A stretch of 64,000 bases of DNA from Escherichia coli (GTDB lineage Bacteria > Pseudomonadota > Gammaproteobacteria > Enterobacterales > Enterobacteriaceae), in the NCBI RefSeq assembly GCF_017348835.2, contig NZ_CP071375.1; one strand, written 5' to 3'. The first letter of the stretch is position 1; every line of letters begins with the position of its first letter. Below, piece after piece: positions 5,744 to 9,159 of the stretch. The position numbers and the translations under genes were made by a program. The notes beneath the pieces are model-generated. The model made no database searches and was not told the origin of the DNA. It saw only the letters and a program-made list of their open reading frames with translations.

Positions 5744-7733
5744 TCAGAAATGCATATTGGCCGTGAGCAAGAAGGTTCTTGGCTCGCCCGGGTGATAACG
5801 GTAGCCGCTCTTGTTGATTGAGGCGACGTAATCGGTATCAAACAGGTTGTAGACGTTTAGCTGGAAGTCGAGATTGCGATTAACCCGATACCCCAGTTTG
5901 GCATCGGCGACCCAGTAACCTTCGGTAAATGCTGGCGTTCCCACCGCGCCGTCTGAACCTTTATGCATACTGCCGATATAGCGTGCGCCCGCGCCAACAG
6001 AGATATCGTCGGTTGCCTGATATTGGCTCCATAAGGTGAAGGCGTGCTCCGGGGTATACGGCAGCGATGAGGAACCATCCTGGGCAACATCTTTGCCGTT
6101 TTTGATGGTTGCTTTTTGCTGGGTATAGCCGCCAATCACCTGCCACGCGGGAGTGATATTCCCGGCCACGGATATCTCATAGCCTTCGACGCGTTTCTTA
6201 CCGTATTGCGAGTAAGTTCCGTCATCATTTTGCTCAACTTCATTTTCGATATCAGTACGGAATAGAGCGGCGGTGAGCAACAGGCGTTTATCCAGAACCT
6301 GCCATTTGGTGCCAATCTCGCTGGTGTTGGCTTTTTGCGGTTTAAAATCGGTGCGGTTGGCACTGTTACCGCTGCCAGACTGCGCAAGGGCGAAGTTGTT
6401 GCCGCCCGGAGGCTGCTGGGAAACGGCATAGTTAATATAGACATTGCCGTTTTCCGTCAGGTGATACAGCACCCCGGCTTTCCAGTTCACCAGATTGCCC
6501 GACTTGGCGGTGTCGACGGTGGTGACCGGAGAACCTTTTGCCACACCAACTGGGCAGGTGATGGCACCGCGTCCGCTGCCGCCGCAGGCGGTGGCACTGT
6601 CATATTCAGTATGATAATTATCCAGACGGATCCCGCCGTTCAGCTCAAAATCACGGGTGATTTGCAGCGTATCGAAGGCGTAAATTGCGAAGGTGTCCGT
6701 CTGACCATTGGCGTTTGCGCCGTTGCGCGTCAGGCCGCCGGGATGAATGCTGCTGTCAGGATGATAAATATTTACCGCAGGTAACGTCACCGGATTAACG
6801 CCGTAGTTAGTCTGCGTTTCACGGGTAAATTCCACGCCGGTACTGACATCATGACCGATAGAACCGGTATAGAACGTCGAGGTCAGGTTGGTCTGGTTGG
6901 TGAGAATTTTATTACTCACATCTTTGGTATTCGCCGTGCGTGACCACGTCCAGCTATTCACATCGCTGGTGGGCTGGGTAATATTCGACGCCCCACCCAT
7001 AATCGCCGTCATCAGGTAATCCTGCTTCACGCGCGACCAACGGGTAGTGTTGCGAATGGTGGTGTTATCGTTGATGTCGTGCTCAAAACGCATGGTGGCG
7101 GTGTCGGTGGTCGAATCGTCGTAATCGGAATCCGTGCCGTAAAAGTTATGCGTATCAACTTTTCCGGAATGATTCAGGGTCGCCGTTCCTGCAGATGGGG
7201 CAGAATAGCCCGGCAAACCGATGGTTGGAATGCCGCCGTCTGGCGTGTTGTGCTGGGTGACATGCAGATAATTAAGATACAAACGATTCGCTGTACCAAG
7301 GCCAAAAGCGACAGAAGGGGCGATGCCGTAACGCTCATTTTTGACTTTGTCGCGTCCGGCATCGTGCGTTTTTTCGCCCATCACATTCAGGCGCACCGCG
7401 GTGGTATCACCAATGACCTGATTGACGTCCAGCGTGCTGCGGCGGAACCAGGCGCTGCCAATACTCGCGGAGGCGTCAATGCCCGAATCATTGCGCGGCT
7501 GCTTGCTGATCATATTGATCGAGCCCGTCGGTGCGCTGCGCCCGTAGTCGGTGCCGGACGGCCCTTTAATCACTTCGACCTGCTCGGTATTGAAGGTGTC
7601 GCGCGAGACGCTGCCGATATCGCGAATGCCATCAATATAAATGCTGTTAGAGGTATCGGCACCACGCATATAAATGGCGTCGCCAGTGGTGGAGTTACCG
7701 TTCTCACCCGCAAAAAACGCACCCACGCCGGGG
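5744..7733 (-). pseudogene. fiu: fiu, 3' fragment of catecholate siderophore TonB-dependent receptor, separated from its 5' end by IS4
   Basis: ORF 5744..7945 is Fiu barrel sequence only from PGVGAFFAGENG onward; the first 71 codons are read from inside IS4. Confidence 0.9.
7722..7733. repeat. IS4 target-site duplication, copy 1 (cccacgccgggg)
   Basis: Identical 12-mer directly abuts the other IS end at 9160..9171. Confidence 0.85.
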
Positions 7734-9159
7734 TAATGCCAGTCAGTTAAGCAACTGACTGGCTCTTTTTCGGGGCTGTGGGGTATTTCCAGGGCCTCTC
7801 CTTTACCACTCTCGGGAAGGCCCTTTCCCTTCTTGTCGGTAATTTCACAAGTTGTCCCATACTTGCAAGATCGCGCATCAGCTCCGGTATACGTCCCGGT
7901 GAAGCGCCCTGCAATGTCATCAGCATTCTCATCACCATTCCGCATGATTCTGAGAAGCTCAGTTGATTTGGCCAGTAACCTTTCAGATGTTCCGCCATTT
8001 TAATCATCTGATATCTCACCAGATTATAAGCCAGTAAGACACCCCACAGCTCTTGCTCCACAAGCTCAGGCTTTTTACTTCTCAGCGTCAGCCTGCTCAG
8101 TTGCATCGTCTGTTTTATCTCCCTGTATCCCAGTTCGATTTCCCAGCGATGACTGTACAGATCCGCCATTTCTCCTCCGGGGAAGCGCATGGCGTCCGTC
8201 ATCGACGTCAGCAGATGGCAGACTTTTCCTTTGCGCGTCACGGTCAGCAGGCGGGCTGTCACCTCATTTCCCAGTCCCGGCCACTTTTTTCGTGCCTGCG
8301 GGCTGGTTTTCAGCTTCACCAGATGATCGCCTTTACCCAGTTTTCTGATCTCTTCATATTGCGCTCCCTTTCTGAGAGGGATCATCCAGTGGCGGTGTTC
8401 TCCCGCCAGGCTCCAGGCATTTAACAATCCCAGTGAGTAATAACCTTTATCCATTAACGTCAGAGTGTTATCGCCGGTTTGTTCTATAAGTTGCTCAGCA
8501 AGCTCATTTTCGCTGTTCTTCATCGTGCCGAAGGCTGCAGCCGTCAGCAGATGGCTGGTCAGTTCCATCTGGCAGACCATTTTGACCTGCGGGTAGAGCG
8601 CCGGGGTCCCGGCATGTGTCTGGCGAGGGAAGGCTGCATCGTTCTCTGGTGTATCCGGTGTGCGCCAGAACACACCATCGATGGCCAGCAGGGTCAGGCC
8701 GCACCAGTGCGGATGCGGCGTGGCGTTATGCCAGAGCTGCGCTGTTTTCGTGAACACGCGGCGGACAGCCTCACTTCCCAGGCGCTGGCGGGCCTGAATA
8801 ACAGCACTGGGGGCAACGAAGGTGCGATTGCCCGGCAGCATGATGTCCAGGCGATTCACAATCTGGTGAAGAGGTTCTTTACGCTCAAGCGCCATGCCAA
8901 CAATACACCAGACCATCATTTCGAGGGGAAGACGGCGCTTGCGTAGCGTTACAGTACCTGATTCGGCAAGGCAACGAGAGATGAGTTCGGGGTCGAGGTA
9001 ATCTCCCAGAGAAGTCAGTGGGTTACGCAGAGAATCGTAACGGGATACCAGATCAAGAGCCTGTCCAATGTGCATAAAAAAATCCGGAAACGAGTGAGCG
9101 TTTCCGGATTCTTACACAGCCACTGGATCGGTCAACTGATCCTTAACTGATCGGCATTA
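7734..9159 (-). mobile_element. IS4: IS4 insertion sequence, complete 1426-bp copy
   Basis: Imperfect terminal inverted repeats taatgcc(a/g)..tcagttaag at both ends; single 442-aa DDE transposase ORF; 12-bp flanking direct repeat; length matches IS4. Confidence 0.93.
7747..9075 (-). CDS. insG: IS4 transposase InsG
   Basis: 442-aa ORF starting [15 protein letters not shown], recognised as IS4 transposase. Confidence 0.93.

Follow-up and report, generated by a model that had tools for sequence, protein, structure and literature searches.

A probable fiu::IS4 null allele of Escherichia coli and the long IS4-Fiu reading frame that comes with it

Introduction

Fiu (YbiL) is a TonB-dependent iron-catecholate transporter (PDB 6BPM, 6BPN and 6BPO) whose TonB box is situated before residue 50 (PMC6926462). 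It is one of the entry routes of cefiderocol: PMC12480463 cites a 2-fold rise in MIC upon knockout of fiu or cirA alone and a 16-fold rise in the double knockout. Further, convergent gene loss in Shigella has affected fiu, among others (PMC2617782). The IS4 element of E. coli (IS4 family, IS4 subgroup; insG) has a length of 1426 bp, imperfect inverted repeats of 18-19 bp and a single transposase with Nterm_IS4 and DDE_Tnp_1 domains; it duplicates 12 bp of its target and is strongly specific for the target arms, a conservation and specificity stated in the literature (De Palmenaer et al.; PMC2266710). Of the same family are ISAba1, IS1999 and IS10 (pOUT), elements with outward promoters whose ends can drive the expression of adjacent genes (PMC9330008). 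Public protein collections also hold IS-flank chimeras ('IS4 orf' of Shigella and IS4::malY-, IS4::fimbrial- and IS4::gntR-like proteins), in which 71 IS4-coded N-terminal residues ending in LTDWHY are followed by the translation of whatever adjoins the IS4 right end.

Here we analysed a 64,000-nt stretch of an E. coli genome (contig NZ_CP071375.1, assembly GCF_017348835.2), which we call the window, and in which fiu is interrupted after codon 102 by IS4. The element shares the properties of E. coli IS4 listed above and is a sequence variant that departs from the copies of other fiu carriers by 12-16 substitutions; unlike in ISAba1, IS1999 and IS10, a consensus scan of its right end gave no outward promoter-like site. 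A 733-aa ORF runs from the element into fiu and begins with the same 71 residues as the deposited chimeras, but this fiu version is not in the protein collection, and carriers were called with a 660-aa protein starting at GTG or as a pseudogene. Its residues 72-733 share 99% identity with clusters of E. coli Fiu; unlike intact Fiu, it has neither signal peptide nor TonB box and is short of the N-terminal portion of the plug, all of which lie on a separate 110-aa fragment, the gene being split and annotated as a pseudogene. We are confident that the locus is a fiu::IS4 null allele, that is, an insertion-inactivated iron-catecholate receptor gene and not a chimeric gene.

Results

The element (Table 1) has the hallmarks of IS4, namely a size of about 1.4 kb with inverted repeats, a single DDE transposase (PF13006, E = 6e-33; PF01609, E = 1e-31), a duplication in the range of 11-13 bp and conserved target arms, and PGAP names its gene 'IS4-like element IS4 family transposase'. 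PGAP calls the transposase at 442 and not 448 aa because the window's variant carries TCG instead of TTG at 9093. The left-end hairpin, whose 5' arm contains the -10 element of the IS4 promoter, has a minimum free energy of -23.3 kcal/mol (z = -5.3), and none of 200 shuffled sequences was equally stable. It was missed by the terminator scan, probably since the extension of the stem uses up the T-run, and was folded directly instead; we interpret it as probably a terminator or an RBS-sequestering structure that guards against transcription entering from the fiu promoter. For transcription running outward, the right-end hairpin does not qualify as an intrinsic terminator, since on the minus strand it is not directly followed by a U-run. 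The junction itself (7735..7720) was weakly terminator-like in the scan and was rejected as a functional terminator, as it folds no better than shuffled sequences (z = +1.2).

Table 1. Coordinates of the features of the fiu::IS4 locus in the window
Feature	Position	Strand	Basis or remark
ybiX	5025..5702	-	42 nt downstream of the fiu stop
Chimeric ORF, 733 aa	5744..7945	-	ORF listing
fiu 3' fragment, 660-aa ORF from GTG 7726 (inside the duplication)	5744..7726	-	form in public gene calls
Reconstructed IS4 target in fiu, aaaaacgt-CCCCGGCGTGGG-tgcg-tttttt	7704..7748	.	right half 7733..7710
Left arm of the reconstructed target, AAAAACGT	9179..9172
Right target-site duplication copy, CCCCGGCGTGGG, 12 bp	7722..7733	-
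IS4, 1426 bp	7734..9159	-	imperfect terminal inverted repeats TAATGCCGATCAGTTAAGG / TAATGCCAGTCAGTTAAGC
IS4 right-end hairpin, 11 bp	7738..7763	-	plus strand: followed by TCTTTTT; minus strand: no U-run directly after
IS4 transposase gene, 442 aa, Nterm_IS4 + DDE_Tnp_1	7747..9075	-	ORF listing and Pfam
IS4 left-end hairpin, 15 bp, into U7 tract, directly before transposase ATG	9078..9113	-	direct folding
IS4 transposase promoter-like site, TTGACC-16-AAGAAT, upstream TG	9108..9135	-	consensus scan
fiu 5' fragment ORF, 110 aa	9132..9464	-	Fiu codons 1-102, then NADQLRIS (8 IS4-coded codons) and stop
Left target-site duplication copy, CCCCGGCGTGGG, 12 bp	9160..9171	-
fiu promoter-like site, GTGATA-16-GATAAT	9588..9615	-	consensus scan

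In the reconstructed target, an A-tract and, 3 nt further on, a GC-rich core of 12 bp are followed after another 4 nt by a T-tract; this layout resembles an intrinsic terminator and matches the preference of IS4 for terminator-like targets. The same succession of A-rich stretch, GC core and T-run was seen at six other IS4 sites, with duplications of 12-14 bp, in a sample that is biased towards fiu-like flanks (the matches were obtained via BLAST extension) and that we replaced as evidence by unbiased flank translations. Phe is encoded at +6/+7 by 24 of the 39 distinct IS4 right flanks, which means that a T-run lies at 16-21 nt from the end of the element (p = 2e-17). The classical IS4 target consensus, reportedly described by Mayaux and colleagues in 1984, is AAA-N20-TTT.

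An initial annotation had described the 733-aa ORF as a chimera that starts inside IS4 and reads into fiu, and its existence, the 71 IS4-coded codons and the position of the junction all held. The right end of IS4 at 7734 supplies 70 codons and 2 nt of codon 71, residues 66-71 read LTDWHY, and codons 72-733 correspond to Fiu residues 99-760, starting with P99 in PGVGAFFAGENG and running through to the native C-terminus. Only the strand was wrong: the 71 codons had been placed on the non-transposase strand, whereas transposase and chimeric ORF both lie on the minus strand and overlap, in different frames, over the last 199 nt of the transposase gene (7945..7747).

The length of the chimeric ORF is no more than expected by chance. 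Of the three outward frames at the IS4 right end, two meet a stop 3-4 codons short of the end; the third is open over 88 codons. When the transposase was re-coded synonymously, that frame remained open for at least 88 codons in 7% of the trials and for at least 71 codons in 20%; with IS4 in the opposite orientation, the corresponding frame is open for just 7 codons. The chance that fiu falls into the open IS4 frame is one in three. A real overlapping gene in the alternative frame of IS4 was considered and rejected, its openness being within chance and its sequence in any case under the constraint of the transposase frame. All eight carriers examined keep the fiu 3' frame unbroken over its 662 codons, which fits a recent insertion and is also compatible with maintenance.

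Mapping onto Pfam models and onto mature Fiu (PDB 6BPM, 727 aa) gave a concordant picture of what each fragment retains. ORF residues 70-733 correspond to chain residues 64-727; the 22-strand beta-barrel is present (PF00593, E = 1e-55), aligned in full to the C-terminus of 6BPM, and is preceded by positions 33-106 of the 107 positions of the Plug model, of which positions 2-36 are found on the separate 5' fragment. The chimeric ORF has no signal peptide and none of the initial 63 residues of mature Fiu, the TonB box included; the signal peptide, the TonB box and the first third of the plug are carried by the 110-aa fragment. The description of the product as a Fiu deprived of signal peptide, TonB box and part of the plug, and presumably non-functional because of these losses, was thus borne out: of the features needed for a functional transporter, the chimeric ORF lacks the signal peptide, the TonB-box region and a complete plug.

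A product of the ORF had been considered for the case of transcription from an outward-reading IS promoter. A consensus scan of 7400..9700 found no sigma-70-like outward promoter in the right part of IS4, so this possibility gained no support from a scan that, as a simple consensus match, would miss weak or non-sigma-70 promoters. Two promoter-like sites were detected in the region, with 1.8 expected, namely those of fiu and of the IS4 transposase, both away from the right end; the former overlaps GATAATGCTTATC, which we take, from the general consensus, to be a putative Fur-box-like sequence. The plausible source of junction-crossing transcripts is therefore read-out from the transposase gene. 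Further, no Shine-Dalgarno sequence precedes ATG 7945 or GTG 7726, with anti-SD duplexes of -1.9 and -1.7 kcal/mol, respectively, both weaker than the median of -2.5 across all 994 ATGs on the minus strand; this criterion is weak when taken alone, because the native fiu start also scores poorly (-0.6). From these sequence features we infer that the IS4-fiu junction is probably neither transcribed nor translated across.

If the chimera were truly expressed, transcripts from the transposase promoter or from elsewhere within IS4 would exit at the right end, and initiation at ATG 7945, in the alternative frame, would give a 733-aa cytoplasmic IS4-Fiu fusion. Such a fusion would be in keeping with the shared orientation of transposase and fiu, with a right-end hairpin that has no U-run directly after it on the minus strand, with a frame that is open in all seven intact carriers, and with the outward promoters known in the IS4-family elements ISAba1 and IS1999 (PMC9330008). 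We nevertheless regard it as very improbable, since the start codon lies inside the translated transposase frame, the scan gave no promoter-like site for the right part of IS4, a Shine-Dalgarno sequence is missing, gene callers never call the 733-aa product, the open-frame length is within chance, and a protein without a signal peptide cannot become an outer-membrane barrel. Reinitiation at short distances after termination is an established form of translational coupling, and the transposase stop (7749-7747) lies only 21 nt upstream of GTG 7726, a distance compatible with synthesis of the 660-aa product by this route; this product is also the one that gene finders choose. Here too the start is devoid of a Shine-Dalgarno sequence (-1.7 kcal/mol), translation of the transposase is normally very low, the product lacks signal peptide and TonB box, and PGAP treats it as a pseudogene, which makes translation from GTG 7726 distinctly unlikely. 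A protein made from either start would have no signal peptide and therefore could not reach the outer membrane. Compared with both, the fiu::IS4 null allele accounts for the 733-codon frame as what it looks like: a mechanical by-product, not gene-like, of the insertion that split fiu.

The treatment of the locus in public annotation points the same way, as the 733-aa ORF has neither the start signals nor the gene-finder recognition of a genuine gene. Both fiu pieces are pseudogenes in PGAP, as they are in every RefSeq carrier inspected, and GenBank gene calls at carrier loci consist of 110, 442/448 and 660 aa, the last being called in six of eight loci. In P0138 the 660-aa call begins with VGAFFAGENG and belongs to a cluster of 2529 member sequences. 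The exact 110-aa fragment occurs on at least 1000 contigs, Shigella included, and in 2114 blocks of the collection of 15 billion proteins, in which exact look-up of five alleles of the 733-aa chimera (that of the window and four others) found none. A full-length homology search returned only the native 760-aa and the 660-aa clusters; a search with the N-terminal 131 aa returned only proteins of at most 225 aa and hence was unable to reveal full-length chimeras. The suggestion that the ORF might be a source of misannotation was therefore only partly substantiated: the same outward frame of IS4 has been deposited elsewhere as 'IS4 orf' and in chimeras named MalY, fimbrial protein and GntR regulator, but with the 733-aa version absent from the collection and the fiu pieces called as pseudogenes by PGAP, there is no demonstrated misannotation for fiu.

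Among 5426 complete E. coli genomes, the same nucleotide of fiu carries IS4 in 42 genomes in the orientation seen here and in a further 31 in the opposite one (~1.3%), the count of 42 being that of single-piece junction matches after removal of 3 intergenic insertions from 45. Of eight same-orientation carriers that were aligned, six preserve both copies of the 12-bp duplication unchanged, as does VR50; elppa5 has one substitution in the right copy and RMDEC465 is missing the left one. An apparent short IS4 remnant in L018 proved to be a run of Ns at an assembly gap. Between carriers, the flanks show as many as 113 differences in 2989 nt (3.8%), against 0-6 in 1426 nt (<=0.4%) between the IS4 elements of those pairs, the window's variant aside, as exemplified by ECONIH1 and HS13-1 with 81 flank differences and one IS4 difference. 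Variable flank sites come within 3-90 bp of the junction, starting from 3 bp on the 3' side and from ~24-45 bp on the 5' side. These data identify a hot spot, one position of fiu that IS4 has entered repeatedly and independently, in both orientations; gene conversion among IS4 copies could contribute in part to the contrast between element and flanks.

A single old insertion, spread by descent and recombination with no recurrent hot spot, would also give the identical position and duplication seen in nearly all carriers examined, as well as the very wide distribution, Shigella included, of the exact 110-aa fragment. It is hard to reconcile, however, with the presence of both orientations at one nucleotide, with flanks that differ by up to 3.8% at sites 3-90 bp from the junction while the IS4 copies differ by <=0.4%, with the distinct IS4 variant of the window (12-16 differences from the others), and with a site that fits the IS4 target pattern, and we hold it to be very improbable. 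Recurrent insertion into a preferred target accounts better for these observations.

Discussion

Considering the structure of the locus, we propose the following course of events. IS4 transposed into a preferred target within fiu codons 96-107, duplicating its 12-bp core and placing the transposase on the fiu strand, with fiu by accident in phase with the sole open outward frame. Because the frames are in phase and open, an ORF finder does not stop at the junction and places the start of the truncated fiu frame at the first ATG, 71 codons into IS4. Transcripts from the Fur-regulated fiu promoter would yield the 110-aa 5' fragment and end at the left-end hairpin and U-tract, while weak transcripts from the transposase promoter may exit the right end into the 3' part of fiu as RNA without a good translation start. 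Such untranslated RNA would probably be ended by Rho, with a polar effect on ybiX too, a gene that, judging from its position, is probably co-transcribed with fiu and hence subject to polarity of the insertion.

It is conceivable that fiu has a built-in landing pad for IS4 through which its function is lost again and again, as by a switch that precise excision might reverse, with nulls kept by selection, and that the Fur-regulated, exported 110-aa TonB-box fragment might modulate TonB-dependent uptake; on balance we consider this unlikely. If it were true, the selective benefit could lie, for instance, in evading catechol-type 'Trojan-horse' agents that use Fiu for entry, cefiderocol and catecholate microcins among them, and even then the chimeric ORF would be irrelevant. 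As it stands, the locus is a textbook IS-disrupted gene, and its long ORF is an artefact already flagged as a pseudogene by good pipelines.

The practical consequences concern annotation and typing. Naive calls at IS4 right ends yield chimeric or truncated 'proteins', such as the 660-aa 'Fiu' and the chimeras labelled MalY, fimbrial or GntR, and screens for the presence or absence of fiu can therefore be misled. Literature searches on IS4 in connection with fiu, outward promoters or terminator targets found nothing specific, and in the literature searched there was no report of an outward promoter of E. coli IS4. With fiu knocked out at one exact nucleotide in ~1.3% of complete E. coli genomes, and also in Shigella, fiu::IS4 is a common null allele, detectable by a simple junction PCR or k-mer.

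Anatomy of the fiu::IS4 allele

Reading the minus strand and locating the ends of the IS showed that fiu, the gene for the iron-catecholate (TonB-dependent) receptor, is split by a regular IS4, in which all four of the defining features tested were found. The transposase carries Nterm_IS4 and DDE_Tnp_1 (Pfam). The triplet at 9091..9093 is TCG in the window's IS4 and TTG in other copies, and PGAP consequently calls a 442-aa transposase here and one of 448 aa in those copies.

Features of the fiu::IS4 allele and predicted promoter-like sites (consensus scan of 7400..9700)
Feature	Position	Strand	Remarks
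fiu promoter-like site	9615..9588	minus	consensus scan
fiu start	ATG 9464	minus	102 normal codons before interruption
fiu 5' piece ORF, 110 aa			ends with 8 IS4-coded codons (NADQLRIS), then stop
12-bp perfect direct repeat CCCCGGCGTGGG	9171..9160 and 7733..7722		brackets IS4
IS4, 1426 bp	9159..7734	minus	begins TAATGCCGATCAGTTAAGG..., finishes ...CTTAACTGACTGGCATTA
IS4 transposase promoter-like site	9135..9108	minus	consensus scan
IS4 transposase gene	9075..7747	minus
Chimeric ORF, 733 aa	5744..7945	minus	ORF listing; starts at ATG 7945 inside IS4
fiu 3' part	resumes after IS4, native stop at 5744	minus

The chimeric ORF is an accident of insertion

The ORF listing recovered exactly the chimeric ORF of the initial annotation with the sequence quoted there, and the count of 71 codons ascribed to IS4 proved right, IS4 DNA supplying codons 1-70 and the first two bases of the next. 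Their assignment to the non-transposase strand was mistaken, as the transposase gene lies on the same strand and its last 199 nt are overlapped by the ORF in a different frame. By Pfam, the 110-aa piece holds Plug positions 2-36. Positions 33-106 and the barrel lie in the chimeric ORF, whose residues 70-733 correspond to chain residues 64-727 of the mature Fiu crystal structure (6BPM, 727 aa). Because the ORF maps only from mature residue 64, its product would have neither signal peptide nor TonB box and its plug would be missing the first third, in agreement with what had been predicted for it. A beta-barrel protein without a signal peptide cannot reach the outer membrane. With signal peptide, TonB box and complete plug each missing, the chimeric ORF is not a functional TonB-dependent transporter. 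The TonB box of Fiu is located N-terminal of residue 50, and Phe-105 and Glu-108, which fall just past the insertion point, belong to the substrate pocket (PMC6926462).

Two of the three outward frames at the right end of IS4, the transposase frame among them, meet a stop 3-4 codons short of that end. The remaining frame extends 88 codons without a stop, as far back as a TAA at 8002..8000. In 20,000 synonymous re-codings of the transposase, with codons sampled according to local usage, this alternative frame stayed open for at least 88 codons in 7% of the re-codings and for at least 71 codons in 20%. An IS4 in the opposite orientation at the same site leaves only 7 codons open upstream of fiu, and whether fiu falls in the open frame is set by insertion phase alone. 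Taken together, chance openness, insertion phase and the 7-codon frame of the opposite orientation make the long N-terminal extension an unremarkable accident.

The chimeric ORF also fails simple tests for a real gene. No Shine-Dalgarno sequence was found by duplex energy at ATG 7945 (-1.9 kcal/mol) or at GTG 7726 (-1.7 kcal/mol), the median over all 994 ATGs of the same strand being -2.5. As to the outward-reading promoter that had been considered for the IS end, a crude consensus scan of 7400..9700 gave two promoter-like sites on the minus strand, those of fiu and of the transposase, and none in the right part of IS4.

The transposase ATG is immediately preceded by a U7 tract into which a 15-bp hairpin extends (9113..9078, minus strand; -23.3 kcal/mol, z = -5.3); the -10 element of the IS4 promoter sits in the 5' arm of the hairpin, which the terminator scan did not pick up. 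Judged from its sequence, it looks like a device against read-in transcription or translation that spares the IS4 transcript: read-in from the fiu promoter would be stopped or silenced, and IS4's own transcripts would escape. The hairpin at the right end (11 bp, 7763..7738) is not immediately followed by a U-run on the minus strand, and a weak terminator-like call at the IS4-fiu junction was rejected, since it folds no better than shuffled sequence. These two observations make it plausible that transcription of the transposase gene continues into fiu at a low level.

Annotation in public records

The window's junction is 100% identical to those of the pig isolates PE164 and F2_81. In every RefSeq carrier inspected, PGAP annotates a pseudo 'TonB-dependent receptor plug domain-containing protein' missing its C-terminus, the IS4 transposase, and a pseudo 'catecholate siderophore receptor Fiu' missing its N-terminus. 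GenBank gene calls around the 110-aa fragment give 110 aa, 442 or 448 aa, and 660 aa; the 660-aa protein begins VGAFFAGENG at GTG 7726, inside the duplication, and represents a cluster of 2529 member sequences. The concern that such an ORF may be misannotated is justified for IS4 in general, since proteins deposited elsewhere also contain these 71 IS4-coded residues, for instance the 'IS4 orf' of Shigella and chimeras named as MalY, fimbrial protein, DUF1175, GntR regulator or substrate-binding protein. It does not hold for the 733-aa fiu form, five alleles of which were absent from a collection of about 15 billion proteins. Genes split by an IS and bearing a spurious ORF extension are already known, and RefSeq handles them.

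IS4 recurs at one position in fiu

A 401-nt junction probe (IS4 right end and fiu, at least 80% coverage) matched 45 of 5426 complete genomes. Three matches were removed as two-piece hits, in which IS4 occupies the mcbA-fiu spacer and does not interrupt fiu; 42 remained. A synthetic probe for the opposite orientation found 31 further complete E. coli genomes (H99-H129), all with single-piece, full-length matches; VR50, the opposite-orientation genome checked, has the identical 12-bp duplication. Both orientations together account for about 1.3% of the 5426 genomes.

The eight same-orientation carriers examined share position and orientation, and the duplication is intact on both sides in six. 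In elppa5 the right copy has one substitution, C>T (CCCTGGCGTGGG), and a 2-bp deletion near the IS4 right end brings the transposase frame into phase with fiu, giving a 771-aa ORF; these changes are possibly sequencing errors, the record having other frameshifts. RMDEC465, a genome with 31 IS4 places, has fiu sequence up to an unrelated 12-mer, GGCACATTGCCG, in place of the left copy (L008, about 1763..1775), a replacement possibly due to IS4-IS4 recombination or a second event. The eight carriers represent at least six fiu haplotypes. On the 3' side 132 of 1990 bp are variable, the closest such sites lying 3, 24 and 69 bp from the IS; on the 5' side 68 of 1000 bp are, and here the closest lie at about 24-45 bp if the RMDEC465 replacement is set aside. 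Flanks differ pairwise at up to 113 of 2989 positions (3.8%), and the IS4 copies of the same pairs at 0-6 of 1426; for ECONIH1 and HS13-1 the differences number 81 and 1, respectively. The IS4 of the window forms a variant of its own, differing from the other copies at 12-16 positions. The insertion occurs in both orientations and in unrelated haplotypes, and the IS is much younger than the surrounding DNA; on this sequence comparison, these features together indicate that IS4 entered this fiu position repeatedly and independently.

The exact 110-aa fragment occurs in 2114 blocks of the assembly collection, with close variants in Shigella dysenteriae Sd197 and S. flexneri. The fiu::IS4 hot spot, on which a literature search found no paper, is a modest but solid by-product of the analysis. 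The recurrent allele has some practical relevance through reports that convergent gene loss in Shigella has included fiu (PMC2617782) and that Fiu contributes to cefiderocol entry (PMC12480463).

Target preference of IS4

The reconstructed fiu target reads aaaaacgt-CCCCGGCGTGGG-tgcg-tttttt. Other IS4 sites, in a comparison set biased towards fiu-like flanks, likewise combine an A-rich arm and a T-run with a duplicated core of 12-14 bp that is GC-rich and often palindromic, and several are obvious intrinsic terminators; the sites include the adhE-tdk spacer (CCCCTTCTGGGG), the region downstream of eno (CAGCCTTCGGGCTG), the ytfP-chpS spacer (CACCTTCGGGTG), ydeE (ACGCTGGTGGTG) and a ytfT-adjacent ABC transporter permease gene of IAI39 (TACCCTGGCGGGG). 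As a check on this bias, 39 distinct flank translations were taken from deposited 'IS4 orf' chimeras: 24 have Phe at +6 or +7, which corresponds to a T-run at a distance of 16-21 nt from the IS end; about 8% would be expected to do so (p = 2e-17). The T-run pattern agrees with the AAA-N20-TTT consensus reportedly described for IS4 targets in the 1980s. A near-palindromic target also accounts for the occurrence of both orientations.

Other observations around fiu

STEC17-190 (L009, 1775..3201), 23CRST047 and 23CRST049 have a second IS4 site nearby, between mcbA and fiu, with the duplication CACCAACGTAAC, the window's orientation and an intact fiu about 270 bp downstream. In the laboratory strain Origami2-DE3, a K-12 derivative (L025, 2396..2840), no more than 54 nt of an inverted IS4 end separate the fiu 5' fragment from nupC/mntH; as these genes are distant from fiu in K-12, this arrangement suggests that the same position in fiu underwent a rearrangement associated with IS4. 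In O121 201805972 (L003, 5268..6380) and in loci L020-L022, an IS421 transposase gene lies directly downstream of the fiu stop, in the usual place of ybiX. Within the window, REP/BIME-like palindromic repeats (GCCTGATGCGACGC..., GCCGGATGCGGCGTAAACGCCTTATCCG) at 4040..4150, between hcxB (ybiC) and ybiJ, are ordinary E. coli intergenic DNA. In three loci (L005, L006 and L008) the fiu-ybiX interval is about 170 bp longer than in the window and most carriers.
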